A DNA stretch of 32,000 nucleotides from an uncultured Chloroflexia bacterium (GTDB taxonomy: Bacteria; Chloroflexota; Ktedonobacteria; Ktedonobacterales; JADMIN01): the NCBI GenBank assembly GCA_963718915.1, contig CAVRAI010000001.1:180001-212000 (forward strand), read 5' to 3'. Shown here piece by piece: positions 3,546-19,509 of the stretch. A program made the translations under genes and the position numbers. Below the pieces are notes generated by a model that did not search any database, was not told the DNA's origin, and saw only the letters and a list, made by a program, of their open reading frames with translations. How positions within the stretch are numbered: position 1 is the stretch's first letter; each line of letters opens with the position of its first letter.

Positions 3546-3866
3546 ATGGCGATCAAAGAGGGCTGGCGCGGACGCTTCTTCGAGGACTTCGCTGTAGGCG
3601 ATGTCTACCAGCACCCGCTGGGGCGCACGGTCACCACGACCGATAACCTGTGGTTCACGCTGCTCACACAGAACACCGCCCCGATCCACTTCGACCACCA
3701 TTACGCGGCCCAGACCGCGTTCGGCAGGCCGCTGGTGGACTCGACCTTCACGCTGGCGCTGGTGACCGGGCAGAGCGTCACCGATATCTCGCAGAACGTC
3801 TTCGCCAATCTCGGCTGGGACGACGTGCGGCTCCCACAGCCCGTATTCGAGGGCGACACGATCTAC
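3546..3866 (+). pseudogene. MaoC-like (R)-hydratase / hot-dog fold dehydratase, N-terminal fragment interrupted by IS insertion
   Basis: The sequence MAIKEGWRGRFFEDFAVGDVYQHPLGRTVTTTDNLWFTLLTQNTAPIHFDHHYAAQTAFGRPLVDSTFTLALVTGQSVTDISQNVFANLGWDDVRLPQPVFEGDTIY is typical MaoC dehydratase sequence. Similarity ends after GDTIY (nt 3866). An RBS AAGGAG lies upstream of the ATG at 3546. Confidence 0.8.
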
Positions 3867-3932
3867 CGAAAAATCGGGCTGGGCCTTGGCTTGAGCTACG
3901 GACAGAGACGGGAAAAGCCGATAGGGCTACTC

Positions 3933-3961
3933 TTGACAGGCAAGCGCTTGTCTCCTATACT
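3933..3961 (+). promoter_or_regulatory. Near-consensus sigma-70 type promoter inside the IS left end, positioned for a leaderless tnpB mRNA
   Basis: TTGACA (3933-3938), a 17-nt spacer, then TATACT (3956-3961). The tnpB ATG at 3968 lies 7 nt after the -10 hexamer and no Shine-Dalgarno is present. Confidence 0.5.
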
Positions 3962-3967
3962 GGCCAC

Positions 3968-5290: not shown

Positions 5291-5460
5291 AAGCCATCTG
5301 ATTGCCTCCCCGGCACGCACCCGAGTGTCTGGGTGGCGATGATCGAGGGCGGTTCGGTTGGCATCCGAGGCGTGGCAATATGCCAGGTCGATACTTCATA
5401 CTGGCGAGGAGGCAGCAGCCATACACGAGATAGCGGCGAGAAACAGAGAGGGGCGATACG

Positions 5461-6915
5461 ATGAAGGTGAAGATGATCTTACCCGCGCTGACCGAGGCGC
5501 TCAGCCCCTACTTCCGCCCCATCAAGTATTCGCTCTTCCCGCCGCTCGGCCTGGCGACGCTCGCGGGCTATCTGGACGCCGACGACGAGGTGACGCTCCA
5601 GGACGAGCATGTGGAGCGGCTCGACCTGGACGACGAGCCAGACCTGGTGGTCATCCAGGTCTATATCACCTCGGCCTCCCGCGCCTATGCGCTCGCCGAT
5701 CACTATCGCGCCAGAGGGGCGTACGTCGCGCTGGGCGGGCTGCACGTCACCTCGCTGCCGCGGGAAGCCGCCCAGCATGCGGATAGCATCTTTCTCGGCC
5801 CCGGCGAGGACACCTGGCCAACCTTCCTGGCAGACTACCGGGCAGGACACCCGGCGCCAGTCTACACATCGACCGTGCGCACACTGCAGGGTATCCCACG
5901 CATCCGGCGCGACCTGATCAAGCGGAGCCACTACCTCGTGCCTAACTCCATTGTGGTATCTCGCGGCTGCCCGCATGTCTGCGACTTCTGCTATAAAGAG
6001 GCCTTTTTCAAAGGGGGCAAATCGTTCTACACGCAACAGGTGGACGACGCGCTCGGCGAGATCGCGCGGCTGCCCGGACGGCATCTCTACTTCCTCGACG
6101 ATCACCTCTTCGGCAATCCACGGTTCGCGGCGAGCCTCTTCGAGGGCATGCGCGGGATGGGGCGACTGTGGCAGGCGGCAGGCACGGTGCAGTCGGTGGT
6201 GCGGCCGGGATTATTGGAGCAGGCCGCCGCGTGTGGTCTGCGCAGTCTCTTTGTCGGCTTCGAGACGCTCAATCCCGCGAACCTGCGGGAGCAGCGCAAA
6301 TACCAGAATCTCAACCGTGACTACTCCGCCGCCATCCGTCGCCTGCACGACCTCGGCGTCATGGTCAACGCGAGCTTCGTCTTCGGCATGGATGAGGACG
6401 ACGTGAGCGTCTTTGATCGGACCATCGAGTGGGCCGTTAGCCAGGGCATCGAGACGGCAACTTTCCACATTTTGACGCCCTATCCCGACACCGCTCTCTA
6501 CAAACGCATGGAGTCGCAGGGACGGCTGCTCCATAGCAACTGGGACCTCTACGACACGCGCCATGTCGTCTACCGCCCGGCCAAATTGACGCCCGAGGCG
6601 CTGGAGTCGGGCTACTGGCGCGCGTACCGGGACTTCTACCGCTGGAGCGCGATTGTGCGCGGGGCAGGCGCCCATGAGCGCTGGGGCGAACGCTTGCGCC
6701 ATGTCGCCTATGCTGGTGGCTGGAAGAAGTGCGAGCCGATGTGGGATCTCATTATCCGCGCCAAACGCGCATCAAGCATGCTCCCGGTTCTTGAGACGGT
6801 GCTGGCGGCGTTCGGCTCGCGTCGCCCACTGCGCGAAAGCGCCCCCGAGCCGGAGACGCTGCCTGTGCCTGTGCCTATACCTGAGCGTTGCGCCCCCTCG
6901 CCTGATGTTGCCTGA
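5461..6915 (+). CDS. B12-binding domain-containing radical SAM protein (class B radical SAM)
   Basis: 484 aa. The N-terminal B12-binding-like domain reads ILPAL...PPLGLATLAGYL...VVIQVYITSA. The radical SAM cluster motif is CPHVCDFC followed by GGKSFY. The C-terminal region is like DUF4070. An RBS GAGAGGGG lies upstream. Confidence 0.85.
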   Translation: MKVKMILPALTEALSPYFRPIKYSLFPPLGLATLAGYLDADDEVTLQDEHVERLDLDDEPDLVVIQVYITSASRAYALADHYRARGAYVALGGLHVTSLPREAAQHADSIFLGPGEDTWPTFLADYRAGHPAPVYTSTVRTLQGIPRIRRDLIKRSHYLVPNSIVVSRGCPHVCDFCYKEAFFKGGKSFYTQQVDDALGEIARLPGRHLYFLDDHLFGNPRFAASLFEGMRGMGRLWQAAGTVQSVVRPGLLEQAAACGLRSLFVGFETLNPANLREQRKYQNLNRDYSAAIRRLHDLGVMVNASFVFGMDEDDVSVFDRTIEWAVSQGIETATFHILTPYPDTALYKRMESQGRLLHSNWDLYDTRHVVYRPAKLTPEALESGYWRAYRDFYRWSAIVRGAGAHERWGERLRHVAYAGGWKKCEPMWDLIIRAKRASSMLPVLETVLAAFGSRRPLRESAPEPETLPVPVPIPERCAPSPDVA

Positions 6916-6978
6916 TGTTGCCTGATGTCGCCTGATGTCGCCTGATGTCGCCTGATGTCGCCTGATGTCGCCTGATGG
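6901..6978. repeat. 10-bp tandem repeat CCTGATGTYG, 7 full copies plus an 8-nt partial copy
   Basis: Read directly from the sequence: 2 x CCTGATGTTG, 5 x CCTGATGTCG, then CCTGATGG. The radical SAM stop codon (6913-6915) lies inside copy 2. Confidence 0.95.
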
Positions 6979-7066
6979 ACGTTGTGGAGAGGATCGAGCC
7001 GAGAGACCATACCTCTGAGGGCGGAGATGGTGTGGGCTGGCGTTGCATCCAGCTGAATTGGGGAGA

Positions 7067-7094
7067 ACCCGGACTGGTTGATTCCAGCCCGGGT
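7067..7094. terminator. Candidate bidirectional hairpin terminator between convergent genes
   Basis: ACCCGGACTGG - ttgatt - CCAGCCCGGGT forms an 11-bp stem with one mismatch. No clear U-tract follows. Confidence 0.4.
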
Positions 7095-7108
7095 GAATCG
7101 CTGGTGGC

Positions 7109-7747
7109 TTACGGCTTCAGTTCGATCAGGCGCTCTGCCAGCGCCTCGCGGTGACCCTGGGCATTCAGGTCGAAGACTGGCATTGCCGGAGTGGCGCCCT
7201 CCTCCTCGATAATGAAATCACAGTCAGCGAAAGGGTGGCCACACTCCTCCAGCAGGAGCGATAGATCGCCAGGCAGGACATAGACATCGAGCAGATCGGA
7301 ATCGATCAGCGTCGTGGCGACGATGTCGATTAGCTTCTCGGCCATGTCAGCCTGATAGCCCTCCCGCACGAAGCGTTCGAGCAGCTTGTCGAGGGCGCGC
7401 TCGCCTTCATAGCGCCGTCGCCGAATCTCCTCATTGCTATAGCGCGCACGATAGCGGCTCCAGTGTGACGGATCGAGCGTTGACTCCGGCAACAGGTGGG
7501 CTGACTCATCGCCATCGCCGGTCGGGACATATTCCAGTTCTTCCGGGATGCGCAGATGGCGAAAGAAACAAATCGCATCGCCGAAGTCGGCAAAGTAAGT
7601 ACACCATTCACCCATCGGAATCGCGCGCGCGGACTCGAAGATAACACACGATGTGGGCGACAATCCCTCATCCCATGGCGCCACTCTGCACTCAGGCGTC
7701 ATAGCATCCTGCCAACGCTGCTGGTACTCTGCTAATGTTCTGCTCAT
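7109..7747 (-). CDS. Hypothetical acidic cytoplasmic protein, no family recognised
   Basis: The 214-aa ORF in the track starts at a TTG (7753). An ATG at 7747 with GAGAGGT upstream is the more likely start. Composition is coding-like and no motif was recognised. Confidence 0.55.
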   Translation of the reverse strand: MSRTLAEYQQRWQDAMTPECRVAPWDEGLSPTSCVIFESARAIPMGEWCTYFADFGDAICFFRHLRIPEELEYVPTGDGDESAHLLPESTLDPSHWSRYRARYSNEEIRRRRYEGERALDKLLERFVREGYQADMAEKLIDIVATTLIDSDLLDVYVLPGDLSLLLEECGHPFADCDFIIEEEGATPAMPVFDLNAQGHREALAERLIELKP

Positions 7748-8058
7748 GGCCAATACCTCTCATCGAAGGTGGAGCGGCGAGAACGAGCTGTATCCCGCCC
7801 GTCGTCTTCCCGCTACGGCAATGTAAGACCAGCGCCCAATGCTGGTCGTGGCGGCATTTTTCAGGCACACGCTGGTACCTGTCGTGTCCTCAATGACACA
7901 TGATCTCACGTCGAATCATGCCAAGCGCCACATCTGCACATCTGCTGTATACCGTATTTGACGCAGCGCACTCGCTCTAACTCTAAGGCTGTTTCGACCT
8001 GTCCGATTCATTCGACCCAACACCTAACAGGACAATCGCGATCAACCATCGGCGCTGC

Positions 8059-8529
8059 TCAGGCGCTTGCGCGCGCCAGCAGAATGGTCGGCGACTCGGC
8101 TTCGCGGGCCGGTACGTGATTGCACGCGCCCAGCCGGTACTTCATCTTGCGAGCAATGGAGCGCAACCCCCGCCGGTTACGGTAGATGGTGATGACATCT
8201 CCGTCTGAGGAGACGATCACAATCGAGCCTTCCAGCCGCGATACCCAGCTCGCGCGGCGGTCGCATGGGGGAATATCGCGCCGACCAAGAAAATAGAACA
8301 GTGCGCCCGTCCGCTGGATCATCCGGCCATGTGCCAGCACATAGTCCACCGCGTCTGGCGCCACATTGCGGCGAGCGCTCCGCCTGCGCGCATGTCGGGT
8401 AAACGAGGCGACACTCGATCCCAGCCCCTGTTCTGTGAATGAACCTCCCTCCTCCAATACCTCCATCGTGTCCAGCACATCACGTACATCCACCATACCC
8501 ATCGTGCCCTGCCCACTCTCATCTCTCAC
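8059..8529 (-). CDS. DUF4258-like protein (toxin-like small nuclease fold), start uncertain
   Basis: The core FTRHARRRSARRNVAPDAVDYVLAHGRMIQRTGALFYFLGRR...GSIVIVSSDGDVITIYRNRR follows the DUF4258 pattern (HA..R...R.I....I......G..I ... VIT.Y). The track start is a GTG at 8529, with alternative ATGs at 8502 and 8496. Confidence 0.5.
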   Translation of the reverse strand: MRDESGQGTMGMVDVRDVLDTMEVLEEGGSFTEQGLGSSVASFTRHARRRSARRNVAPDAVDYVLAHGRMIQRTGALFYFLGRRDIPPCDRRASWVSRLEGSIVIVSSDGDVITIYRNRRGLRSIARKMKYRLGACNHVPAREAESPTILLARASA

Positions 8530-8670
8530 ATCTCTCGCGCCGGTTTTTGCTCTTGCCGTCTATGGTTTAGATGCGTCATTCGCGGACAAAAGCGGAAATG
8601 GGGTAGAAGGATCTGCGATTTTTCGTGGGAACAGAGGGCGCTGGCGGCTGCCCTGCACACCGTCTTTGTC

Positions 8671-8708
8671 GGCCAGCCCTTCTACCCAGTCCCTGCCTGG
8701 CCTGCTAC
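8671..8708. repeat. 38-bp repeat, copy A (31/38 identical to 9490-9527)
   Basis: GGCCAGCCCTTCTACCCAGTCCCTGCCTGGCCTGCTAC versus GGTCAGCCACTCTATCCAGCCTCTGCCTGACCTGCTAC, aligned by eye. The two copies flank the esterase gene. Confidence 0.7.
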
Positions 8709-8783
8709 CGCGCCAGTTCATACGCGGTGAGAAGAGACATCTGCGCATACTATCAGAAAAGCTTACAGAGCAGAGGTGCGAAA

Positions 8784-9446
8784 ATGAATGACCGAGCCAT
8801 CGCGGGAGAGTTTGTGAGCGAGACATTCGACTACGACGGTGGTCGGCAGGTTACGGTGTATGTCCCGCCAGATCCGCCTGAGGCAGTCGTCTTCGCTGGT
8901 GACGGGCAGAGGATCTCGCAGTGGGGCCGGTTCCTCGAGGCAGCCGACGTACCGCCGACGATGATCGTCGGTATACATGGGCTGACGGACGAGAAGCTGC
9001 GACTCCAGGAGTATTCACCGGTCTTTGACGCTGAACGGTTCGCAGCACATGAGCAGTTCTTCGTGGAAGACGTCCGCCACTGGACAGCGTCGCAGTTTGG
9101 AGTAGCCCTGCCCACTGAACGCACCGCGGTGTTCGGCGCCTCGGCGGGTGGAGAACTCGCGCTCGCTCTTGGGCTCCGGCATCCCGACGTTTATGGCGCG
9201 ATCTTCTGCGCCTCGCCGGGCGCGGGCTACCAACCGGCCGAGGTGATGTCGAGTAGGATTCCGCGCACGTACCTTGTTGCCGGCACGCAAGAGCCGTTCT
9301 TCCTTGAGAACGCGGCGAGGTGGGCGGCTGCGCTGCGCGCTGCGGGCGCCGACGTCGTCATGAAAGAGCGGGTCGGATCGCACGGCGGCGCGTTCTGGCG
9401 AAATGAGTTCCCGCTGATGGTGGCGTGGGCGTTTGGACGCAAATAG
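8784..9446 (+). CDS. Alpha/beta hydrolase, putative esterase family (enterochelin-esterase-like)
   Basis: The protein starts MNDRAIAGEF... from an ATG at 8784 with AGAGGTG upstream. The nucleophile elbow is GASAGG, and PxxxxYLVAGTQEPFF and GSHGGAFW are typical of the putative-esterase family. Confidence 0.75.
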   Translation: MNDRAIAGEFVSETFDYDGGRQVTVYVPPDPPEAVVFAGDGQRISQWGRFLEAADVPPTMIVGIHGLTDEKLRLQEYSPVFDAERFAAHEQFFVEDVRHWTASQFGVALPTERTAVFGASAGGELALALGLRHPDVYGAIFCASPGAGYQPAEVMSSRIPRTYLVAGTQEPFFLENAARWAAALRAAGADVVMKERVGSHGGAFWRNEFPLMVAWAFGRK

Positions 9447-9482
9447 AATACCTTCTACGTAGCAGGAAATTGCTGAAGAATT

Positions 9483-9528
9483 CGTAGCAGGTCAGCCACT
9501 CTATCCAGCCTCTGCCTGACCTGCTACG
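9483..9528. repeat. Perfect 13-bp inverted repeat with 20-nt loop (terminator or REP/MITE-like element), overlaps copy B of the 38-bp repeat
   Basis: CGTAGCAGGTCAG (9483-9495) pairs with CTGACCTGCTACG (9516-9528). An extra CGTAGCAGG copy lies at 9458-9466. The element sits between convergent genes. Confidence 0.8.
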
Positions 9529-9725
9529 AAATACCTCCGTACAACGTGTCGGGTAAACCAGCCGGAGCCTGCCAGGGAATAGGCTGGGGATGCGGGAAAT
9601 TCGCCGTAGCATTCACGCTACGGTCTGCCTCGCCTACCGCGACATATGGTGTTCGGAAGAAAAAGTGAAAGTTCATAACGATCCAGCGCAGATCCCAAGT
9701 GACAACAGCTCAAGCACATGTGGTG

Positions 9726-12700
9726 TCAGTTGCTCGTGGCGGCGGGTATTGGGCTGGGATCGGCGCTCTCGGGGTCGGATGGGCAGACATAGCAGAAGGC
9801 GCAGGCGGCGCAACGACGCTCATTGGGGCGTGGCGCGAAAGCACCGGCGACGATACCCCTCGCCGCTTCATCCAGTTTGTCCAGCTTCGAGCGGCTCTTC
9901 CGCTCTGGGTCAAGATAGCGTTCGGCGGCTTTGCGCGCTTCATCGGTGACATCGCGCTGATGCCGTGGATCATACGAGTCCGCCGAGTCCGCCGAGTCCG
10001 CCGACGCATCATCCAGCGTCCCGCTAGTGTAGGCAAGGACGATCCGTACCGGAACTCCAGGGTGTTGCTGTTGATACGCCAGATAGTAGAGCGGCAGGGT
10101 CAGATCGTCTTTATGGGCGTCGCGGGGACGCCCGGTATGCAGTCGCACCAGGATGGTCAGCGGCGCGGCGCCCTCACCAGAGGAGATGCTACCGTCGATC
10201 TCGCGGTCAGCCGTCACCTCGACGACGCAGTGCTTCAGGTCGGCCTGTAGTGGCTGCGCCAGCCGCACCCGCTCGGACGCCGCCACTCCCTCCGGCGACG
10301 TGATCGCCCGCCACTCTTCGCGCAGAATAGCCTCCGCAGCCTGCCGATAGAAGTCTTCGTAGGCATGCCCCGCTGGGCCGACCTCGTCCCAGAGCGGTTG
10401 AAGTCGCGCCTCGGCGGCTTTCCAGTCCGCTCCGGGGCTGGCTGCCTGGACATCACGTAATGTCCGCGCGCCCTGGCGGATGAACGCATGGAAGCTGTAG
10501 ACAGCCTCTCGCGCGGGATCGCGAAAATCGTGGATGCGCAGGTATTTGTATTGCAGTGGACATTCCAGATACTGGTTCAGGTCGTGCAGCCGGAAGACTG
10601 GCTTCTCGCGTGGCGATTGCGCGGGCGTCCGCTCAGACACAGGCGCCGCAGCGAACGAACCATCGCTCTCGCTTTCGTCCTCTTCGTCGTCGTTCGTCTC
10701 CTCGAAGGTGGCGGCGACGGCCAGCAGACGCTCGCACTCCTCGTCGGAGAGCAGCGGTTCGGCGGCCTCCCAACCCGGCGCGCCATCCATGAGCGCCAGC
10801 AGCGATGATCGCTCCGCCGTGCGCCCGTTGCTATAGCTGGCGGCGCGACTGAAGGCAACGATATCGCGCGCGCGGGTGACGCCGACGTAGAAGAGGCAGC
10901 GCTCCTCCGCGTCACGCTCGCCGGGTGTATCGCCATCGCGAAATCCGGGCGGCGCAATCTCTTCGCGCCCAGGCCTGCCCGCCGGAAACTGGCCGTGCGC
11001 CAGGTTGGGCAGCAGCACTACCGGAAATTCCAGCCCTTTGCTCTGGTGCAGTGTCAGGATATGGACGGCATCCTCATTTCCAGCCGGGACAGGCACCGCG
11101 ACATCGGTTGCCCGCAGCGCGCGCAGATAGTGCAGAAAGCAGGTCACTACCGGGACGGCCTCGTCAGGTTGCGCGGAGGCAGGGGCAGCGGATGGCATGA
11201 CATCGGCATTGGGCGCGGGAGCGAGCGTATCGGGTTGCGCGGCGCGCGCCGCCTTCCGATGGCGTACCGCGCGGCTCAATCGGGCGCGGAACTCTGGCTC
11301 TGCCTGCCAGCGCGCGTCGAAGCGCCATGCCAGCCGCACCAGTTCGCCGAGCGCCGCCAGCGCCTGGCTCGCCTGCCCAGCGGTCTCCAGGCCAGGAAGC
11401 GCATCCTGTCGCTGTGGCGCATCCTGGCCATCGGCGACGCGCGCCAGCCGCCAGGCATATCCTCCCGACAGCAGCAGAAAATCCGCCAGCTTGGCGCCCA
11501 CGAAGGAGCTATTGCGCAGTCCTGTTGCAATTTCGCCCAGCCGGACGAGTCCGGCGCGTGTCGTCGGCGCGAGCGGCGGAATCTGGCCAAGCATGTGTCC
11601 GTCCCGTAGCGCGCCAGGGAGCGCGCGCTGCTGGATTGAGAGATAGCGCGCCGTGGCGGCAAGCTCATTCCCTGCGGGAGCTGAGCAACCAAGGGCGACC
11701 AGGAGCGGAGCGGAGCGCAGGACTCCGCGCGCATCTGGTCCCGCCGCCAGTGTGAGCAGCATCAGCGCGTCCTTCACCTCTGACCGCTCGAAGAAATCGC
11801 CAAGCTGGCTGACGGGTACGCCTCGTCTGGTGAGGATGGCGGCGATCTGGCGCGCCTGCTTGTGCGTGCGACAGAGAATCGCCTGGTCGCCATAGCGATA
11901 GTCGTGCACATGGAAGCGCTCGATGGCCGCCGCCAGCCCAACGCGCTCGTGTGCCGCGCTGGCGAATGTCTCCGTGCGCAGAATGGGTTGATGGGCGCCG
12001 TCGCCACGCGCCGGTTCCAGGTCGAGCGGTTGCAGCGCCTCATGCAACGCGCCTGTGGATGGGACTGGGGACAAGGAGGTCGGGGCCAGCCGCGCCAGCT
12101 GCGTCGCCATCGCGGAACCGAGCCGCACAATGCCTGGCACAGCGCGATAGCATCGTCGCAGCCTCAGCACACGCAGATTGGGGTAGCGCTCCGCCAGTCG
12201 CGGGAGATTGCCCGGTGAGGCGCCACGAAATCGATAGATCGACTGATTCTGATCGCCCACCACCCAGAGACCGCCGCCAGCGTCGCCCGCGATCAGCAGC
12301 AGCAATTCGGCAGCCGCGCGGTTGGTATCCTGGAACTCATCCACGAGAATCTGGGAATAGCGCCCACGTACGTGGGCCAAAACGGCGCGATTCGCTCGCA
12401 ACAACTCGACGGCGCGTTGAATCAGGCCGCCAAAGTCCACCAGTCCGCGCCGACGCAATGCACGATCCCAGACCGCATAGGCCGCGGCCCGCTCGCGCGC
12501 TCGTGCAATCTGCTCATCGGTAAATGCGCCATCTGGCGGCTGAATCTTCCGGCTCTGCCTTTTCCGCGCGCTCCCTGGCGATTCGATCTCCGTTGATGCG
12601 TCTGGCGCGGGCATCCGCGGCATCGCATCCACCAGCGCCAGGTAGTCCATGGGGGTCAGCAGCTCGTCGCGCGCGTGGGAGAAATCATCCAGGAGCGTGC

Positions 12701-13796
12701 GCAGGTGCGCGGTGGGATTGCCCAGCGAGCGGTAGTAGTGCAGTGGCAACTCGCCGAGCAACCCCTCCATCAGCAGGAAGGCGTTCGGCTCGTCGAGAAT
12801 GCGGAAGTCGGCGGTGAGTTCGGCCTCGTCGGGCGTGTGTGGCGCTTGCGAGGCGTATTCGCGCAGGAGCGTGGCGGCGAAGGCGTGGATCGTCATGATG
12901 GGCATACGCTCGCCCGGCAGTCCGCTTCGCTCCAGGCGCTCGCGCATCTCGCCAGCGGCACGGTTCGAGAACGTCAATGCCAGCACCTCTTCTGGCTGGA
13001 TGTGGCGTTCTTCGATGAGATGGGCGGCGCGACCAACCAGGGTCGCCGTCTTACCTGTTCCAGGGCCAGCCACGACCAGCGCGGGGCCGGGCGCGCGCGC
13101 GGCCAGCCGCTGCCCGTCATCCAGTTGCGCGATCAGTTCACCCGGAGCGTGTGCTTCACCGCTGTTTGCCTCTTGCGATGGTGCGGGCGCGCTTATGCCA
13201 TCCGTCGGTCGCTCCGGCGCCAGGACAGCGTCGATGAGGCGGCGGCGCGCCAGCAGATGCGAGATGCCAAAGTGGAGAGCCAGTTGCGCGGCGCCTATCG
13301 CGGAGCCTGAGGTAAAGATGCGGCGCACCTCGGCGCGTGGGGCCAGCAATTCGGCGGCAAAGGCGTTGGCCTCCTGTTCGCGCCGAACCCGTGGCGAATA
13401 TTCCTCGACGACACGGTCTTCGCTACGCAGGGCGGCGGCATCGGTCTGTTGATTCACTGCCCGCTCGTCACATGGCGCAAAGAGGCGGATACCCTCGCCG
13501 CGATGGAGCATGTAGTGGCCCAGTTCGTGCGCGATGGCAAACCGCCGCAGTTCTGGGTCCAGGTCGGCGCTCAGCCAGATGGCGCCGCCGAGACGGGGAT
13601 TCTCCCACGCCCAGAGTTGCAGCCGTGAATAGGCGCCGCCCAGCATCACATCGTCGCTGGGGCAGGGCTGAAGCTCGATCCCCAGGATGACGCGCAGGTG
13701 GTCGCTGTGGACGGCATCCGCGCTGGTGTCAGCGATCAGTTGCGCGCGCAAGGTAGCGGCGGCGCGTTCAATAACTTCGATACGTTTTGTAGGCAT
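9726..13796 (-). CDS. Fusion protein: ImmA/IrrE-type (M78) metallopeptidase + UvrD/PcrA-type SF1 helicase + C-terminal Cas4/AddB-like PD-(D/E)XK nuclease with Cys cluster
   Basis: 1356 aa from an ATG at 13796 with TGAGGA upstream. Peptidase motifs are HELGH (aa 90-94) and EQEANAFAAELLAP. Helicase motifs are GPGTGKT, TFSNRAAGEM, VDEFQDTN, GDQNQSIYRFRGA, LHQSKGLEFP and EERCLFYVGVTRA. The nuclease part has YLECPLQYKY, LPLYYLAYQQ and a terminal CAACAFCYVC. Confidence 0.9.
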   Translation of the reverse strand: MPTKRIEVIERAAATLRAQLIADTSADAVHSDHLRVILGIELQPCPSDDVMLGGAYSRLQLWAWENPRLGGAIWLSADLDPELRRFAIAHELGHYMLHRGEGIRLFAPCDERAVNQQTDAAALRSEDRVVEEYSPRVRREQEANAFAAELLAPRAEVRRIFTSGSAIGAAQLALHFGISHLLARRRLIDAVLAPERPTDGISAPAPSQEANSGEAHAPGELIAQLDDGQRLAARAPGPALVVAGPGTGKTATLVGRAAHLIEERHIQPEEVLALTFSNRAAGEMRERLERSGLPGERMPIMTIHAFAATLLREYASQAPHTPDEAELTADFRILDEPNAFLLMEGLLGELPLHYYRSLGNPTAHLRTLLDDFSHARDELLTPMDYLALVDAMPRMPAPDASTEIESPGSARKRQSRKIQPPDGAFTDEQIARARERAAAYAVWDRALRRRGLVDFGGLIQRAVELLRANRAVLAHVRGRYSQILVDEFQDTNRAAAELLLLIAGDAGGGLWVVGDQNQSIYRFRGASPGNLPRLAERYPNLRVLRLRRCYRAVPGIVRLGSAMATQLARLAPTSLSPVPSTGALHEALQPLDLEPARGDGAHQPILRTETFASAAHERVGLAAAIERFHVHDYRYGDQAILCRTHKQARQIAAILTRRGVPVSQLGDFFERSEVKDALMLLTLAAGPDARGVLRSAPLLVALGCSAPAGNELAATARYLSIQQRALPGALRDGHMLGQIPPLAPTTRAGLVRLGEIATGLRNSSFVGAKLADFLLLSGGYAWRLARVADGQDAPQRQDALPGLETAGQASQALAALGELVRLAWRFDARWQAEPEFRARLSRAVRHRKAARAAQPDTLAPAPNADVMPSAAPASAQPDEAVPVVTCFLHYLRALRATDVAVPVPAGNEDAVHILTLHQSKGLEFPVVLLPNLAHGQFPAGRPGREEIAPPGFRDGDTPGERDAEERCLFYVGVTRARDIVAFSRAASYSNGRTAERSSLLALMDGAPGWEAAEPLLSDEECERLLAVAATFEETNDDEEDESESDGSFAAAPVSERTPAQSPREKPVFRLHDLNQYLECPLQYKYLRIHDFRDPAREAVYSFHAFIRQGARTLRDVQAASPGADWKAAEARLQPLWDEVGPAGHAYEDFYRQAAEAILREEWRAITSPEGVAASERVRLAQPLQADLKHCVVEVTADREIDGSISSGEGAAPLTILVRLHTGRPRDAHKDDLTLPLYYLAYQQQHPGVPVRIVLAYTSGTLDDASADSADSADSYDPRHQRDVTDEARKAAERYLDPERKSRSKLDKLDEAARGIVAGAFAPRPNERRCAACAFCYVCPSDPESADPSPIPAATSN
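9975..10001. repeat. 9-bp tandem repeat CGAGTCCGC x3 inside the helicase-nuclease gene
   Basis: Read directly from the sequence. On the minus strand it encodes SADSADSADS in a linker just before the C-terminal Cys cluster region. Confidence 0.9.
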
Positions 13797-13870
13797 GATG
13801 AATCCTCAGCGGCTCTCTCATCGCTGCACTTAAAGCATTTCGTGTTGTGTATTGGGATATGTGGGCGGGG

Positions 13871-14515
13871 TTACGGGCTGTTATTCGCCTCCGCGCGCAC
13901 GATCTCGGCCCACTCACGCTTGCCTTCGGGGGAGAGCGCGCTGGCGTCGACCGCGTCGAGGAAGGTCTGCTGCTTCTGGTCTGGCTGCTGGTCGGCCATG
14001 TAGAAGCCGCCCGCTGGCGTTGCGTTCAGATACGCGCGGATGACCTCGGGCGCCGTCTTCAGCACGTCGGCGAATCGCTGGATGAGCGCGCGCGGGATGG
14101 ACGCGGCGCTGATGGCGTGCGCCTCCAGCCTTTGCAGGAGCGCGCCGGTCAGGCCAACGGCCTCGGCGAGTTGTGGTGGTGTGTAGTTGGCGCGTAACCC
14201 CAATTGCACCAGGCTTTCGACAGCGACGGGCGCCGCTTGCACGCTCTGTGCCCGTATCCGCGCCATCGCCTTCTCGGCTGCGGGCGATAAGACGGGATCG
14301 GGTGGCCCAACCAGCGATTCGGTCGCAAATCCGATAGTATGGTAATAGACGGCAAACTCCAGCAGTTCGCCGGTATATTGCGGGTAACGCCGCACGTAGT
14401 CTTCGATGCGTGGCGATTGCCCGGCATGATAGGCGTCGACGTACTGCGCAATGATGCTGTCGATCTCGTACTGGCGCTTCCGCTGTGCGCGTCGAGCATT
14501 ATTCTGATCAGACAC
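13871..14515 (-). CDS. XRE-like helix-turn-helix protein (ImmR-like or anti-sigma-like partner), otherwise uncharacterised
   Basis: The preferred start is a GTG at 14515, preceded by GAGGAGGG and overlapping the sigma gene stop by 8 nt (GTGTCTGA). The alternative is an ATG at 14539. The HTH-like segment reads YTPPQLAEAVGLTGALLQRLEAHAISAASIP. Confidence 0.65.
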   Translation of the reverse strand: MSDQNNARRAQRKRQYEIDSIIAQYVDAYHAGQSPRIEDYVRRYPQYTGELLEFAVYYHTIGFATESLVGPPDPVLSPAAEKAMARIRAQSVQAAPVAVESLVQLGLRANYTPPQLAEAVGLTGALLQRLEAHAISAASIPRALIQRFADVLKTAPEVIRAYLNATPAGGFYMADQQPDQKQQTFLDAVDASALSPEGKREWAEIVRAEANNSP

Positions 14516-15509
14516 CGTTGCCCTCCTCACCGCCGCCATAGCTCACGCCGAGTTCGCGCAGGGCTTTTTTCAGAAGATACCGTACCATCCGGGGAGTGAC
14601 ACCCAGTTTCGCGGCCGTTTCGTCCTGAGGCAGACTCTCCCGGAACCGATCGATGATCACTGTTCGCTGGTCTTCGGGCAACTCGCGCACCTTGTCGAGC
14701 AGATCACTCAGATCAACCTGTCGAAACGGCGTTTGAGCGTCCATATCTTCCAGTTGGTCGTCGAGCGGAAAGTCGCCTTCACGCTCTGGCGTTGCCTGTA
14801 TGCTATCTATTACATTGGTAGGGACGCGAGTTGGCTTTTCTACACCTGGCCGCTGCCACTCCCCCGCTTTTTTCATGACATCCTGGGCAACATGTTGCCG
14901 CAACCGTAAGAACGCTGTCTCAAAGCGGGTGAGCAGGAATATCTCATCATCGCTAGCTTCATCGTCGCTCAACTCCTGCCACAGTTTAATGAAGCACTCC
15001 TGCTCAAGATCCTGCTGAAGTTCTGGTTTCATGCCGGAGCGCGCCATTCCGGCGACATCCCTGGACCAATGCTTTACGCGGGGTTGAACCCGTCGCCAGA
15101 TCATCTTCAGAACACGGTTCGCATCATCGTTTGCGCCAGCGGCATAACGCTCGCGGTAACAGCGCGCCAGCACCTCCAATGGCAACCGCTGCTCGGCAAT
15201 TGGCTGCTCGATGCGCTGCCAGTAGTCGCCGCTGCCAACTGGAGGGAGCGCGTGGAATTCCGCGTCCAGTTGCGCGCGCAGGGGCGCATAGGGATCATCC
15301 TGGGTATCTTGCACGCCTGACTCCTTCATTTGATAGTAGTCAGTCGCGTCGCCGTAATTCGCTGGCCTGATCGCCGTGGCATATGCCAGAGCGTCGTCAG
15401 TCAGTGGGCGCTCGCGATTACGCCCAGTATAGGAGATTGCGCTGCCAGCGTCAAAGTCTGACGTAAAGACATCGCGCGGGTAATGACCTGACATCGCGAC
15501 ATTGTCCAT
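14508..15509 (-). CDS. Atypical sigma-70 family (ECF-like) RNA polymerase sigma factor with long N-terminal extension
   Basis: 333 aa. A region 2-like segment reads LEQECFIKLWQEL. The region 4 HTH reads LPEDQRTVIIDRFRESLPQDETAAKLGVTPRMVRYLLKKALRELG. About 160 aa at the N-terminus have no motif I recognise. A strong RBS GAGGAGGGG lies upstream. Confidence 0.7.
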   Translation of the reverse strand: MDNVAMSGHYPRDVFTSDFDAGSAISYTGRNRERPLTDDALAYATAIRPANYGDATDYYQMKESGVQDTQDDPYAPLRAQLDAEFHALPPVGSGDYWQRIEQPIAEQRLPLEVLARCYRERYAAGANDDANRVLKMIWRRVQPRVKHWSRDVAGMARSGMKPELQQDLEQECFIKLWQELSDDEASDDEIFLLTRFETAFLRLRQHVAQDVMKKAGEWQRPGVEKPTRVPTNVIDSIQATPEREGDFPLDDQLEDMDAQTPFRQVDLSDLLDKVRELPEDQRTVIIDRFRESLPQDETAAKLGVTPRMVRYLLKKALRELGVSYGGGEEGNGV

Positions 15510-15539
15510 CAGCGCATTCCCCTCCTCTGGCCGTAGCGT

Positions 15540-16475
15540 CTATCTATCCCATACAGCACGATCAGAGGGAAGCGGAAAACCCCACCTCACTCGAAGACGC
15601 CGCGCGCGACCATACGCACATCCCCGGTGACGTATACCGCCGCGATCACCCCATCCGCGCCCTCGACCCGGACACGCATCTGGCTGGGCCGACTCGAGGA
15701 AACGCCCCTGTCGCAGGGTGATTTCCTCATTAGGCGACGCTAACCCATGCTGGACGAGATAGGCGCCGACCGGGCCAGCCGCACTGCCAGTGGCAACGTC
15801 CTCCACGCGGCCGTCGTTATCCCAGGTGCGTCCCTCACGAGTAGGTACATGTAGCACGTAGACGAACTTCGCCCCGACTGAGGCAAGCAATGCCTCGAAT
15901 CCAGGCTGCACAATCGCGGCGCGCTCCAGCCCACTGGCGAGCGGCGCCAGCAGATACGGCAGTCCAGTCGAGACGACCTCCAGCGGCAGACCGGGATAGA
16001 GATCGCTTTCTTCGAGATCGAGCGCGGCGAGGATCAGACTGACCATCTCCGCACCCAGCGTCGCGCCAAATTGCGGACGGCCCTGATCCATCGTCGCCTC
16101 ATACCAGCCCTCGCGGCGGATGGTGCTGACCTGGATTGGTCCCACCGGAAGCTCCAGCGTCCACTCGGCGCGCTCGCCCGCGTCGCCGACATAGTACAGC
16201 CGCTCGTGCAGCACACAAGCCGCGCCAAGCACGGGATGCCCCGCGAACGGCAGTTCTTCCTCCATTGTGAAGACCCGCGCCCCGACGCGATGTATCTCAG
16301 TAGTCGGCATGAGAAAAATCGACTCGAACTGACGCATTTCCCGCGTGATGCCCTGCATCGTCGCAGGCGCAAGCCCACCCGCCTCGGGAAAAACGATCAG
16401 CCCATTGCCCGAGAGCGCCTCGCGCGTGAATACATCGACGTGGCGATACTCCAGACCCTGCAATGACTCATCCAT
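15540..16475 (-). CDS. PhzF-family isomerase/epimerase with an apparent 1-nt frameshift near its 3' end
   Basis: YRHVDVFTREALSGNGLIVF...MRQFESIFL...LPFAGHPVLGAA is a clear PhzF signature. After ITLRQG (about nt 15690) the family-typical C-terminus RPSQMRVRVEGADGVIAAVYVTGDVRMVARGVFE* is read in another frame, with its stop at 15587-15589. The annotated frame runs on to 15540 with Arg/Gly-rich junk. Confidence 0.8.
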   Translation of the reverse strand: MDESLQGLEYRHVDVFTREALSGNGLIVFPEAGGLAPATMQGITREMRQFESIFLMPTTEIHRVGARVFTMEEELPFAGHPVLGAACVLHERLYYVGDAGERAEWTLELPVGPIQVSTIRREGWYEATMDQGRPQFGATLGAEMVSLILAALDLEESDLYPGLPLEVVSTGLPYLLAPLASGLERAAIVQPGFEALLASVGAKFVYVLHVPTREGRTWDNDGRVEDVATGSAAGPVGAYLVQHGLASPNEEITLRQGRFLESAQPDACPGRGRGWGDRGGIRHRGCAYGRARRLRVRWGFPLPSDRAVWDR

Positions 16476-16632
16476 CGCGTGCCTCGCAATCATGCCGCAA
16501 TTTTCTACCCGGTAACTACGGCTTGAGTATACGCCGCATGGTGCGACAAAGGTCGCAGCCAACGTGGCTCGCCGGGCGGTAGCGTAGAGAGAAGCGAGAC
16601 CATCAGCGGACGAATTCGCGAGGAGGGTAACT

Positions 16633-17007
16633 ATGAGCCAGATGAACCAGCAGAGCCAGTTCGACCAGAGAGAGCCTGCCGCTGAGGATGCGCCAGCGGC
16701 GACGGAGAAGGTGATCGGCGAGATTTACGAGGCGCTGCACAACGTCTACGACCCAGAACTGGGTATCAATATCGTTGATCTGGGGCTGGTCTACAATGTC
16801 GATCTGCGCGAAGACGGCTTCGTGACAATCACGATGACGCTGACAACGCCCGGCTGCCCGATGCACGAGTCCATCGGCGAGGGTGTGGGCGCCGCGCTCC
16901 AGCCCATCGCGGGCGTGACCGGCGGTACAATCCAGCTCGTCTGGGAACCGCGCTGGGAGCCTTCGATGATGACCGAGGCGGGCCGCGCCGAGCTGGGCTA
17001 CTGGTGA
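16633..17007 (+). CDS. DUF59 / MIP18-family Fe-S cluster assembly protein (SufT/PaaD-like)
   Basis: VYDPELGINIVDLGLVYNVDL...VTITMTLTTPGCPM is the canonical DUF59 core. Confidence 0.85.
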   Translation: MSQMNQQSQFDQREPAAEDAPAATEKVIGEIYEALHNVYDPELGINIVDLGLVYNVDLREDGFVTITMTLTTPGCPMHESIGEGVGAALQPIAGVTGGTIQLVWEPRWEPSMMTEAGRAELGYW

Positions 17008-18359
17008 GTGGGATGGGCGAGCGCTTTATGCGGGGCGAGGATGCCCACGACGTTCGCCGCGGCAAGGATCAGCCCGACGCCAAGGGCCACCGCGGCGATC
17101 TGGAGCGGGATAACCCAGTCGAGCAGGGCAGTCACGGCGACGAGCGGCAGCGCTCCGTTCACCAGCCAGAAGCTGATCGTCGCCCAGCGCTGATGCACCA
17201 GGTCGCGCATGAGCGGCACTTTCTGCCGTCCGACGAGCGCGCCGTAGCGTGACTGCCAGACCAGGAACGGGACGATCTTATAGAGATAGCCCAGCGTGCT
17301 CTGCCCCAGCCAGCCGACCAGCGCCGCCAGCCCCAGCGCGGCGAAGAGGCGCGGCGATCCCCAGCCGACGAGCGCGGCGACAACCCCCAGTGGGATAACC
17401 ACCGCGAGATAGCTTACCGCCGCGATGCCGTGATGCTGGGTCACATCGAGCACCCTGCGTTTGCGCTGGAGCAACATCCGCGCGTAGTCCCAGGCGAAGA
17501 GCCAGACGGCGGCAATAAGCAGCAGCCCGCCGATGAGCGCGAGTGGCGGCCAGGAGAGCGCGAAGCCCACCGCCATCCCCACAATGCCGCCATTGAGCAG
17601 CGCAAAGACACGTCGTCCCGGCATATCCTCATGCCCATGTACCAGCGCAAACATCCGTACGAGCGTATAGGAGACGCCCATCAGCGTGCACGTCAGCCAG
17701 CCGACGACGCCCAGCGTGATATGCGCCAGCAGCAGCCGGCCTGTCCCCGCGCCAAGGAAACCGAAGGCGAGATTGAGCGCGGCGGTCAGTCCAAGACAGA
17801 CGACAAGACAGAGATAGATCAGCGAGGCGGAGAGATAGCGCGCCGTCAGCGGGTGTGTCTCATGCTGCCGGTGCGCGTAGATGAGCGTCGCGCCGAGGAT
17901 GGTGGCATAGTGCGCGACCGCCAGCGCCACCAGCGAGCCGCCGACAATCAGCAGTGGCATGCGCCAGAACCAGAAGCCTGAGAGCAGCAGCGCGACCCCC
18001 ACGAGGTAGATGGGATATTGCCAGCGCGCAAACCGGGCCGCTCGTAGCGGGCTGGTGAGGATAACCGGAGCCAGTTGCAGCGAGGCCCCCATGATCGTCA
18101 TTGTCAGCCAGCCGAGAGTGGCCGTATGCACAAGCGTGAGCACATGCGGAAACCCCGGCGCGAGGATGGCCTGTGGCGCGACCCACGGCAGCAACGTCCC
18201 GAACAGCGCGGCGCCCAGGACGCCCGTCACCAGAAACGGCAGCGGCAGCCAGAGCGGCACGCCCCCACGCGCGACGCCGCTCAACCCCTGGATGGCGACC
18301 AGAGGCGCGCCAGCGGTTGGTGGCTTTGCAGTCTGAATGGGACGCATGCTGGGCTGCAT
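16998..18359 (-). CDS. Polytopic membrane protein (about 12 TM) with conserved His pairs; function unknown, possibly a heme/copper-binding oxidase-like or NnrS-like protein
   Basis: 453 aa and almost entirely hydrophobic helices. His-containing motifs are HVLTLVHTATLGW, LLAHITLGVVGW and LVHGHE. It lies immediately downstream of a DUF2249 gene (19-nt gap), with an RBS AAAGGA. Confidence 0.6.
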   Translation of the reverse strand: MQPSMRPIQTAKPPTAGAPLVAIQGLSGVARGGVPLWLPLPFLVTGVLGAALFGTLLPWVAPQAILAPGFPHVLTLVHTATLGWLTMTIMGASLQLAPVILTSPLRAARFARWQYPIYLVGVALLLSGFWFWRMPLLIVGGSLVALAVAHYATILGATLIYAHRQHETHPLTARYLSASLIYLCLVVCLGLTAALNLAFGFLGAGTGRLLLAHITLGVVGWLTCTLMGVSYTLVRMFALVHGHEDMPGRRVFALLNGGIVGMAVGFALSWPPLALIGGLLLIAAVWLFAWDYARMLLQRKRRVLDVTQHHGIAAVSYLAVVIPLGVVAALVGWGSPRLFAALGLAALVGWLGQSTLGYLYKIVPFLVWQSRYGALVGRQKVPLMRDLVHQRWATISFWLVNGALPLVAVTALLDWVIPLQIAAVALGVGLILAAANVVGILAPHKALAHPTHQ

Positions 18360-18377
18360 GGGCGTATCCTTTCGCCG

Positions 18378-18638
18378 CTACTCCTGCTCCCGGACAAAGC
18401 GAACGATCCACTCGTCATCCGCGACGCGCTCCGTGGCGTGCGAGAATCCGCGCCCGCCAAGCGCCTGGTAGAGTGGCGCTGGCTCGAATGGCGCGATCAA
18501 CACCAGCGCTTTCCCCGGCGGGATGCGCTCCGCCGTCTCCATAATCTGCACGAACGGCTCGCCACCCTCGGCCAGCACCGGCCGGACGTCGAGTATCTCG
18601 GCGGCATCTATCTTCCACGATGCGGCGTTGCTGCTCAT
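18378..18638 (-). CDS. DUF2249 domain protein
   Basis: 86 aa. LDVRPVLAEGGEPFVQIMETAERIPPGKALVLIAPFEPAPLYQAL matches the DUF2249 pattern (LD.R.l...g.P...I......l..G..l.l...feP.PL...l). An RBS AAAGGAAA lies upstream. Confidence 0.8.
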   Translation of the reverse strand: MSSNAASWKIDAAEILDVRPVLAEGGEPFVQIMETAERIPPGKALVLIAPFEPAPLYQALGGRGFSHATERVADDEWIVRFVREQE

Positions 18639-18743
18639 GATATTTTCCTTTCAGCTACCAGTCAGCTATCATGCAATGCGCTCGCTGCTCTTCCCGACAC
18701 GGACAGCCAGAGTGTACGCTCATAGCGGGGACAGGACAGCGAC

Positions 18744-18757
18744 TTAGGTCGCATCAA
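18744..18757. promoter_or_regulatory. Weak Crp/Fnr-box-like site in the divergent intergenic region
   Basis: TTAGGTCGCATCAA compared with the consensus TTGAT-N4-ATCAA. The right half is perfect and the left half matches 3/5. Confidence 0.25.
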
Positions 18758-18828
18758 GCGCCAGAGACTCAACGCACGAGGCCAGTGGAACATGGCGGCG
18801 AGCAGGACTTGGGCGAGAGGAGTGAGCG

Positions 18829-19509
18829 ATGCCGGTTGAGAGTGAGGAACTGCGCAAGGCGTCGCTCTTTGCGCCACTATCGGACGATGATATGGCGCGC
18901 GTCGCGGCGGTGACGGTCGAGCGCCACTACGAGCGTGGCGATATCATCATCCTCGAAGGGGATCGCGGTGGCGCGCTCTATTTCGTGCGCAGTGGGCTGA
19001 TAAAGGTCTTCAAAAGCTCGCCAGGGGGCAAGGAGCAGGTGCTCCGGCTGATCGAGGCGGGCCGCACCTTCAACGATGTCCCCGCGCTGGACGCCGGGCC
19101 GAATCCCGCGAGCGCGGCGGCGCTGGAGCCAAGTGTCGTCTACGCGACGGGTGGCGCTGAGTTGCGGCGATTGATCGCCGAGCGGCCAGGAGTCGCGCTC
19201 GCAACGGTGCAGGCGCTGGCGGGCGCGTTGCGTCACCTCGTCGCGCTGGTCGAAGACCTCTCCTTCCGCCATGTCACGGCGCGCGTGGCCAAGATTCTGC
19301 TTGAACAGGATGTCGGCGTGGTTGCCAATAGCGGCGCATCGGGCAAGGCGGCTCACCGGCTGACCCAGCAGGAAATGGCGGCGATGGCGGGTACGGCGCG
19401 CGAGATGGTCGGCCGGGCGCTCAAAGAGCTGGAGGCAAGCGGCGCGATCCGCATCCAGCGCGGACGCATCACGGTGGTCAGCCGCGAGCGCCTCGAAACG
19501 TTCGCGTGA
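18829..19509 (+). CDS. Crp/Fnr family transcriptional regulator
   Basis: The cNMP-binding-like beta-roll reads GDIIILEGDRGGALYFVRSGLIKVF...GKEQVLRLIEAGRTFNDV. The C-terminal HTH reads LTQQEMAAMAGTAREMVGRALKELEASGAI. An RBS GAGAGGAG lies upstream. Confidence 0.9.
   Translation: MPVESEELRKASLFAPLSDDDMARVAAVTVERHYERGDIIILEGDRGGALYFVRSGLIKVFKSSPGGKEQVLRLIEAGRTFNDVPALDAGPNPASAAALEPSVVYATGGAELRRLIAERPGVALATVQALAGALRHLVALVEDLSFRHVTARVAKILLEQDVGVVANSGASGKAAHRLTQQEMAAMAGTAREMVGRALKELEASGAIRIQRGRITVVSRERLETFA

Follow-up and report, generated by a model that had tools for sequence, protein, structure and literature searches.

An operon of three genes was found in a window of 32,000 nucleotides (nt), the whole stretch of DNA analysed, from the genome of an uncultured Chloroflexia bacterium (Ktedonobacterales, JADMIN01; assembly GCA_963718915.1, contig CAVRAI010000001.1, positions 180,001 to 212,000). 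The three open reading frames (ORFs), all on the minus strand and in the same direction, encode a sigma factor similar to those of the extracytoplasmic function (ECF) type, a helix-turn-helix (HTH) protein of the XRE/Cro type, and a large fusion protein in which an M78 peptidase is joined to a helicase of superfamily 1 (SF1) and an iron–sulfur (Fe-S) nuclease-like domain. Since sigma and HTH neighbours are conserved next to homologues of the fusion gene, the three genes appear from their sequences to make up one functional unit, a widespread unnamed cassette. The following features were assigned to it (aa, amino acids; AF2, AlphaFold2):

15426–15454, minus strand: sigma-70-type promoter, TTGACG-17-TATACT, matching 10 of 12 consensus positions
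15315–15425, minus strand: conserved 5' leader of ~110 nt, with near-identical nucleotides in loci L095 and L096
14508–15314, minus strand: ECF-like sigma factor, 268 aa (Sigma70_r4_2, TIGR02937, AF2 and Foldseek)
13871–14515, minus strand: three-part XRE/Cro-type HTH protein, 214 aa (AF2 and Foldseek)
9726–13796, minus strand: 1356-aa fusion of an M78 peptidase, an SF1 UvrD-type helicase and an AdnA/AddB-like Fe-S nuclease-like domain (Pfam)
13236–13589, minus strand: M78 metallopeptidase domain of the CapP/IrrE/ImmA type, aa 70–187 (Pfam and invariant residues)
10842–13124, minus strand: SF1A helicase core of the UvrD/PcrA type, aa ~225–985 (Pfam and invariant motifs)
9777–10601, minus strand: RecB-family nuclease-like domain with four Fe-S cysteines, aa ~1066–1340 (PDDEXK_1; motif III degenerate)

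Genes and proteins of the operon

The layout given in the original prediction, which was made from the DNA letters alone, is borne out by the ORFs: the genes are co-directional, the sigma and HTH genes overlap by 8 nt, and 74 bp (13797–13870) separate the HTH gene from the gene of the 1356-aa protein. The overlap is formed by the HTH start codon GTG (14515–14513) and the sigma stop codon TGA (14510–14508) as GTGTCTGA, with GAGGAGGG directly upstream. The GC content of the operon is like that of its surroundings.

The sigma gene most likely occupies positions 14508–15314, encoding 268 aa from GTG 15314, as judged by comparison with related loci. The ORF taken earlier (333 aa, to position 15509) is the longest possible reading, and the 160-aa N-terminal extension attributed to the protein is largely non-coding promoter and leader, its start codon having been over-extended. 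The promoter TTGACG-17-TATACT (15454–15426), which falls within the supposed extension, and the conserved leader are contained in the 195 nt preceding this GTG. Stop codons occur in frame upstream of the conserved KESGV in L089, a 70%-identical relative; homologues of the sigma protein are mostly called at 261–277 aa; and a Shine–Dalgarno sequence AAGGAG, conserved in relatives, lies six bases 5' of GTG 15314.

Judging by this promoter, the cassette of the window is probably transcribed from a promoter of the housekeeping type; six further loci of Ktedonobacterales (L081, L083, L089, L090, L095 and L096) have the pattern TTGACN-17/18-CCTATACTG upstream of their sigma genes. The leader, extending for ~110 nt from promoter to start codon, is near-identical in L095 and L096, although identity between their sigma proteins is just 55%. 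The nucleotides that differ there are few, and each change alters the hypothetical amino acid, with no synonymous bias, a pattern that fits non-coding conservation. In the predicted fold of the leader, TCGCG and CGCGA form a long-range stem, and CUGACU pairs with the Shine–Dalgarno region AGGAGUCAG in a hairpin that would sequester this site. The RNAalifold consensus contains 32 pairs, four of them with compensatory changes, and is tentative because only five sequences were used. No credible family match for the leader was found in Rfam; it may act as a cis-regulatory RNA. A palindromic operator was not found; both TCGCGA boxes of the leader, considered as operators, pair together in the RNAalifold fold.

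The sigma protein matches Sigma70_r4_2 above the Pfam cut-off (2.7e-10) and the NCBIfam model TIGR02937, sigma70-ECF, with 46.7 bits against a cut-off of 42.9 bits, the latter match spanning both domains. Its AF2 model (pLDDT 80) has a helical domain at the N-terminus and one of four helices at the C-terminus, with a disordered linker in between. The best PDB matches of the model in Foldseek are exclusively sigma factors, aligned over 190–216 columns, with the ECF type (group 4) in the lead, namely, sigmaE-RseA (1or7), sigmaH, AlgU, sigmaL, SigW, CnrH and BldN. The ~70 aa ahead of the sigma-2 match show conservation throughout the family, and the model places them in helices with high confidence. 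A sigma-like profile match (E 1e-24) was also found in the 494-aa protein P0337, together with a reverse-transcriptase domain, PF00078; this protein may be a sigma-like module fused to a reverse transcriptase.

The second gene was predicted to encode an XRE-like HTH protein. The predicted fold agrees with this, whereas the sequence match is weak: Pfam gives only HTH_31, with 21 bits against a cut-off of 27 bits. The AF2 model (pLDDT 85.5) has three parts, namely, a conserved N-terminal helical domain (aa 1–60), a central five-helix HTH of the XRE/Cro type (aa ~100–165) and two C-terminal helices. Foldseek matches of the central domain include 434 Cro, SinR, C.BclI, the N-terminal domain of CapH (7t5u, TM 0.74), DdrO and HigA. 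Proteins of the CapH-type layout have ~100–130 aa with an N-terminal HTH and a C-terminal oligomerisation domain, while the 214-aa protein carries its HTH centrally, behind an extra conserved N-terminal domain. The loop between the HTH and the C-terminal helices, modelled with low confidence, contains a motif with the consensus YKAD..P......F (F/Y-x-A-D; FYMADQQPDQKQQTF in the window), in which P178 and F185 are nearly invariant; it is a candidate site of cleavage or docking. Clustered at 50% identity, the family of the middle protein counts 1427 representatives at E<=1e-10; Pfam has no model for it, and nearly all of the listed homologues are without a recorded Pfam domain.

The fusion protein contains Peptidase_M78 (PF06114; 3.5e-12, aa 70–187, 46.6 bits against a cut-off of 22 bits), UvrD-helicase (1.6e-57), UvrD_C (1.4e-27) and PDDEXK_1 (3.4e-9, aa 1073–1339), all above the curated cut-offs, as expected from the peptidase–helicase–nuclease-type architecture proposed for it. 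The assignment of the peptidase to the ImmA/IrrE kind also holds. Residues H90, E91, H94 and E140, representing HExxH and the downstream Glu, are invariant in an alignment of 15 fusion sequences reaching down to 33% identity, and are kept in 26 sequences. The best solved relative of the peptidase by sequence is CapP (7t5t), although the match in PDB is weak (E 0.02), and the cysteine C109, without variation among the 15 aligned sequences, is at most one position away from C113, the 'cysteine switch' of CapP. The gammaproteobacterial members of the family have no C109-equivalent cysteine, which parallels the cysteine-switch loop's partial occurrence among CapP proteins, just 33% of which carry it (Lau et al., bioRxiv 10.1101/2022.04.27.489752).

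The helicase motifs, with motif III and the arginine finger among them, are invariant in the same alignment (Walker A, GPGTGKT; DEFQD; QSIYRFRGA; TRAR). In NCBIfam, similarity to PcrA, UvrD and AddA is partial, with AddA at 119 bits against a cut-off of 708 bits and RecB at 109 against 696. The C-terminal domain has mycobacterial AdnA as its best solved relative (E 2e-10), and its four Fe-S cysteines, C1079, C1329, C1332 and C1338, are invariant. From the 'Cas4/AddB-like nuclease' described earlier, the RecB-family domain with Fe-S cysteines is retained, but the canonical (D/E)xK motif is missing: in the profile alignment the catalytic VVDLKTG of AdnA stands opposite LVRLHTG in the window, and R-x-R/H/K is found across the family. 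Because DxK is replaced by RxH, the domain is probably not a canonical nuclease, and its sequence makes a role in DNA binding or sensing more likely than one in cutting. PADLOC v2 contains no model for the cassette; the sigma and HTH proteins match nothing in it, and the fusion protein matches only generic UvrD/helicase models (GajB, DRT-helicase).

Conservation and associated operons

Approximately 90 full-length fusion homologues of the same architecture were found in Ktedonobacterales assemblies (40–82% identity), and more distant ones elsewhere. A sigma gene and a gene of ~200–220 aa, overlapping or abutting, precede the fusion gene in 5/5 longer Ktedonobacterales loci and in 5/5 metagenome fragments found by a scan with the HTH protein. 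Loci with this arrangement include L081/L082 (51% identity), L083 (43%), L089 (70%), L090 (61%) and L085 (32%). The sigma–HTH–fusion order is also present in L085, L001, L002, L005–L012, L014, L015, L018, L022 and L050, and was found in Chloroflexota, Acidobacteriota, Verrucomicrobiota, Cyanobacteria and Alpha-, Beta- and Gammaproteobacteria. Trios with proteins aligning end to end are encoded by a Chloroflexi metagenome-assembled genome, an acidobacterium, Roseiflexus, a verrucomicrobium and many proteobacteria. The conservation of the sigma and HTH neighbours, on which the original prediction hinged, thus extends across at least six phyla and to fusion homologues of ~30% identity, and the sigma and HTH genes overlap by 1–8 nt in nearly all loci.

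The cassette occurs on 71 plasmids, while the middle protein is encoded in 0 of 50,697 phage records. In Ktedonobacterales, the flanking genes are housekeeping or metabolic ones and differ between genomes (SecA, NAD kinase, RsfS, PhzF). The region 15540–19509 of the window is syntenic with 1938–6149 of L089, both containing genes for a PhzF-family isomerase, a protein of ~450 aa that Pfam does not match and a regulator of the Crp family; this synteny does not extend to more distant Ktedonobacterales loci. In L004 (5890–14510), the genes behind a homologue of the M78-UvrD-nuclease-like protein are a DNA methylase-like one, HicB and that of a BrxL Lon-like protease, a context of the BREX type.

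In Acinetobacter pXBB1-9 and on the chromosome of Escherichia coli CP61, the trio is followed directly by genes of a multiubiquitin-domain protein, a ThiF-family E1 and a DUF6527 protein, and the same cargo directly follows it on plasmids of Klebsiella, Rhizobium etli and Leptolyngbya. These cargo genes constitute the Bub (Ub-6E) operon studied by the Corbett laboratory (bioRxiv 10.1101/2024.11.21.623953). In the cargo-bearing records the trio is annotated as two hypothetical proteins and a UvrD-helicase. Bub cargo was also found behind the cassette in L008, L009, L011, L012, L014, L015, L018 and L050, and weaker ThiF or JAB matches in L006, L007, L010 and L013; most of the proteobacterial and cyanobacterial cassettes examined lie directly upstream of a Bub operon or another E1-type ubiquitin-like operon. 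The Bub genes of L009 (Sphingomonas fennica; 9430–11800) seem to be rearranged, stretches of both the multiubiquitin and the ThiF gene matching on the opposite strand. The six-gene unit of L092 (Rhizobium etli pRetNXC12d; 5313–16555) has DUF6088/AbiEii upstream and a PD-(D/E)XK nuclease-family gene downstream, a setting like that of a defence island, and its sigma-like gene bears the annotation 'response regulator transcription factor'.

The spacer between the fusion and Bub genes contains the bipartite motif TT[AT]C[CG]G-N16-17-[CG]GATT (TTWCSG-N16-17-SGATT). A scan gave 24 strict matches in 433 kb of cassette loci against 9 in 804 kb of control loci. About 20 of the 24 lie at two fixed sites on the coding strand, one just past the fusion stop and the other ~200 nt before the HTH start, within the 3' part of the sigma gene; such pairs occur, for example, in L050 (4980 and 9154), L087 (7223 and 11408) and L091 (7764 and 11966), while the first copy in L005–L007 is instead located upstream of the sigma gene. 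Three loci retrieved once the motif had been defined contained six of six predicted sites, two in each. The intragenic copy encodes Y/F-R......A-I, with the Ala-Ile codons being GCG-ATT in 10/10 loci. ATT accounts for 6–50% of Ile codons and GCG for 13–47% of Ala codons, which gives a joint probability of ~1e-11.7 if shared ancestry is ignored; the fixed codons point to selection on the DNA itself. With two boxes 16–17 nt apart, the motif resembles a –35/–10 pair in layout, and is proposed from these sequence features as the cognate promoter of the sigma factor of the cassette. At the place where other loci carry the motif, right after the fusion stop, the acidobacterial locus L001 has four tandem copies of GATTTCG (~9290–9320).

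Proposed role of the cassette

The operon may be a transcriptional switch sensing the state of DNA, built on the same principle as CapH/CapP, DdrO/IrrE and ImmR/ImmA, in which a tethered peptidase activated by single-stranded DNA cuts the HTH protein and sigma-dependent transcription follows, a reading to which we assign a probability of roughly 50%. According to this scheme, the helicase and Fe-S module would load on DNA ends, damaged or foreign DNA, and produce or track single-stranded DNA, which would activate the tethered peptidase in the way that free single-stranded DNA does with CapP and PprI/IrrE. The peptidase would then cut the HTH protein, probably in the conserved disordered loop around P178. 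With an anti-sigma role of the HTH protein, cleavage would free the sigma factor, and with a repressor role it would lift repression; the sigma factor would then transcribe its target promoters. Translational coupling between sigma and HTH, together with the additional N-terminal domain, speaks for the anti-sigma role, and the standard XRE fold for that of a repressor. The cassette probably switches on other genes in response to broken or foreign DNA. CapP is known to cleave CapH and to be activated by single-stranded DNA (Lau et al., bioRxiv 10.1101/2022.04.27.489752), and direct sensing of single-stranded DNA by PprI/IrrE is reported (PMC10904395).

A number of observations weigh against the proposed switch. 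Cleavage of the HTH protein, its binding of the sigma factor or of DNA, and the binding of RNA polymerase are inferred. The peptidase has no GAF domain detectable by Pfam, the helicase beginning ~40 residues after the peptidase domain, and without the GAF domain of CapP/IrrE, there part of a C-terminal HTH-GAF sensor, activation may work differently. The Sigma70_r2 model of Pfam taken alone remains sub-threshold (13.9 against 24 bits). Fusion homologues in L086, with two-component genes upstream, and in L003 and L004 have no sigma and HTH neighbours. The tblastn search with Acinetobacter Bub proteins found no Bub genes in the window, where the next gene is a convergent esterase, and the Ktedonobacterales copies, including that of the window, have neither Bub genes nor a conserved downstream gene. 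The motif TTWCSG...SGATT is absent from the window and from the Ktedonobacterales loci, and where present, it could be an operator rather than a promoter. The HTH–fusion spacers and post-fusion regions of Ktedonobacterales share no element beyond the ribosome-binding site.

In a rival reading, which keeps the switch but wires it differently, the HTH protein would be a conventional DNA-binding repressor of the promoters of the operon and its cargo, similar to CapH and DdrO, and no anti-sigma factor, with the sigma factor acting as an independent positive factor. The fold of its central domain, matching the N-terminal domain of CapH and DdrO, the cleavage of the repressor CapH by CapP, and the C-terminal helices after a linker, resembling CapH and DdrO in their 'HTH plus dimerisation domain' layout, agree with this wiring. 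We consider it rather unlikely in view of the short sigma/HTH overlap, typical of sigma/anti-sigma pairs, the N-terminal helical domain with no counterpart in CapH, and the lack of a palindromic operator, the TCGCGA boxes of the leader pairing with each other in the predicted RNA. It is unlikely that the fusion is itself the effector, a stand-alone anti-phage helicase-nuclease destroying foreign DNA, with the sigma and HTH proteins only tuning its expression. Its helicase core scores strongly on the GajB and DRT-helicase models of PADLOC, the architecture is like that of AdnA, AddA and RecB, the cassette is common on plasmids, and one homologue (L004) adjoins BREX genes; but the PADLOC matches represent generic UvrD similarity and do not include the sigma and HTH proteins, the catalytic DxK is changed to RxH/R/K in the whole family, and the cassette-specific motif stands ahead of separate cargo operons. 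A fused peptidase with an intact catalytic site and a dedicated sigma factor are also hard to explain for a simple nuclease.

An M78 peptidase beside an XRE protein is the classic arrangement of ICEBs1 and prophages, and an immunity module of the ImmR/ImmA type, controlling the induction of an integrated mobile element, either an integrative and conjugative element (ICE) or a prophage, is a further reading. Besides this adjacency, it draws on the proteobacterial copies located on plasmids beside insertion sequence elements and on the TnpB gene 4.6 kb from the cassette of the window. We regard it as very unlikely, since no integrase, conjugation or phage structural genes adjoin the cassette, either in the window or in its relatives, the flanks are housekeeping genes, the GC content is that of the surroundings, and the phage records do not encode the middle protein. 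Finally, the fusion could be a housekeeping helicase of double-strand-break repair, similar to AdnAB/AddAB, with functionally unrelated neighbours. The relationship of the C-terminal domain to AdnA, the partial similarity to PcrA, UvrD and AddA and the stable chromosomal context in Ktedonobacterales are compatible with such a role. Every repair-enzyme model, however, scores far below its cut-off, the partner subunit is lacking and the nuclease motif is lost, and sigma and HTH neighbours with translational coupling are conserved across phyla, which makes this role highly improbable.

The original prediction named no described system of this composition. No published description of a sigma/HTH/M78-UvrD cassette was found in the literature covered, the papers of the Corbett laboratory included, and PADLOC has no model for it. 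The composition is, nevertheless, not without precedent, as 24 CBASS systems encode capH, capP and a sigma factor of the sigma-70 family (Lau et al., bioRxiv 10.1101/2022.04.27.489752). The cassette may have been described earlier elsewhere, or its loci may have been counted as 'CapH+CapP' in the Bub preprint.

With CapH+CapP, which regulate CBASS, Bub and other immune operons (Lau et al., bioRxiv 10.1101/2022.04.27.489752; PMC13373217), the cassette shares the M78 zinc peptidase with HExxH, the downstream Glu and a cysteine at the 'cysteine switch' position, the adjacent XRE-type HTH partner, and, in its relatives, the place directly upstream of Bub-type immune operons. It differs in that the peptidase, without GAF, is fused to ~1100 aa of SF1 helicase and Fe-S nuclease-like domain, additional parts at both termini double the length of the HTH partner, a constant ECF-like sigma factor belongs to the single sigma–HTH–peptidase operon, and the copy of the window has no adjacent immune operon. 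DdrO/IrrE (PprI) of Deinococcus is likewise a chromosomal, non-mobile protease/XRE pair, and DdrO is among the fold matches of the middle protein; but IrrE is a stand-alone peptidase-HTH-GAF protein, DdrO represses a known regulon, and neither a sigma factor nor a helicase is involved. The missing GAF domain, the larger partner and the obligatory sigma factor and DNA motor indicate that the cassette is not a plain member of the CapH/CapP, DdrO/IrrE or ImmR/ImmA systems.

Pairs of ECF sigma and anti-sigma factors under proteolytic control (sigmaE-RseA, SigW-RsiW) are similar to the cassette in the two-domain sigma-2/sigma-4 fold and the translationally coupled downstream gene, and some relatives of the cassette carry a candidate cognate promoter upstream of their own operon. 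In contrast to these pairs, the partner in the cassette is a cytoplasmic XRE HTH protein with no known anti-sigma domain, the protease, of the M78 type, is a product of the operon itself and is joined to a DNA motor, and the sigma factor has a family-specific N-terminal part of ~70 aa. Similar to AdnAB, AddAB and RecBCD, the fusion combines a UvrD-type SF1 motor with a RecB-family domain stapled by four Fe-S cysteines, but as one polypeptide without a partner subunit, with motif III changed from DxK to RxH and with an N-terminal peptidase. CapK+CapS and CapW/BrxR are also portable modules located just upstream of Bub or other immune operons and reported to be responsive to DNA damage (PMC13373217); their proteins (kinase/STAS, WYL) are unrelated to those of the cassette and include no sigma factor.

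Assignment to Gabija, in which the helicase GajB is paired with GajA, a nuclease of the OLD family, was ruled out, as only the helicase core matches GajB, the neighbours match nothing in PADLOC and the flanks are PhzF and an esterase. AdnAB/AddAB was rejected because scores are below the equivalog cut-offs, no second motor is encoded alongside and the DxK motif is lost, and an ICE immunity module because of the housekeeping or metabolic flanks and the middle protein unmatched in the phage collection.

How bacteria time the induction of costly or suicidal immune operons is under active study, and the known controllers are reported to react to DNA damage or single-stranded DNA (PMC13373217). The cassette would be a fourth controller of adjacent pathways, with two new features: an ATP-driven DNA motor joined to a protease, which could couple the generation and reading of the signal in one protein, and output via a dedicated sigma factor with its own promoter motif instead of simple de-repression. 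For Bub operons it offers a testable route of induction; according to the preprint (bioRxiv 10.1101/2024.11.21.623953), protection of E. coli from phage by a Bub operon is yet to be demonstrated, and the biological role of the pathway is open. The cassette further defines a large family of proteins for which Pfam has no model, and in the lineage of the window it points to an unrecognised damage-response regulon. In a bolder and doubtful extension, the stand-alone chromosomal cassette of Ktedonobacterales would be a master regulator of the response to DNA breaks, replacing or supplementing LexA/RecA or DdrO/IrrE. A nuclease-disabled end-tracking motor similar to AdnA/RecB would license the fused protease, which would destroy an XRE-type anti-sigma factor and free the ECF-like sigma factor, and the same device, mobilised on plasmids, would represent the fourth class of controllers, driving Bub immune operons.

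Other genes of the window

The window is a mixed chromosomal neighbourhood and not a tight defence island. Two genes of the type found in conflict systems are present far from the cassette, together with a transposon-associated gene:

231–2792, plus strand: DUF4062-AAA_16-TPR (STAND-like) protein
3650–5140, plus strand: TnpB/OrfB_IS605 gene with a Cas12f1-like TNB domain
29518–31422, minus strand: TIR-domain protein, 634 aa

Further genes in the surroundings of the cassette encode a B12-radical SAM protein, an esterase, PhzF, a regulator of the Crp family and a PAS histidine kinase, besides a weak DUF4258 ORF. A promoter-like site, TTGACA-N-CTCCTATACT, was found at 3933–3961 within the long TnpB-like ORF, and its position inside this ORF suggests that the start codon there may also be over-called.

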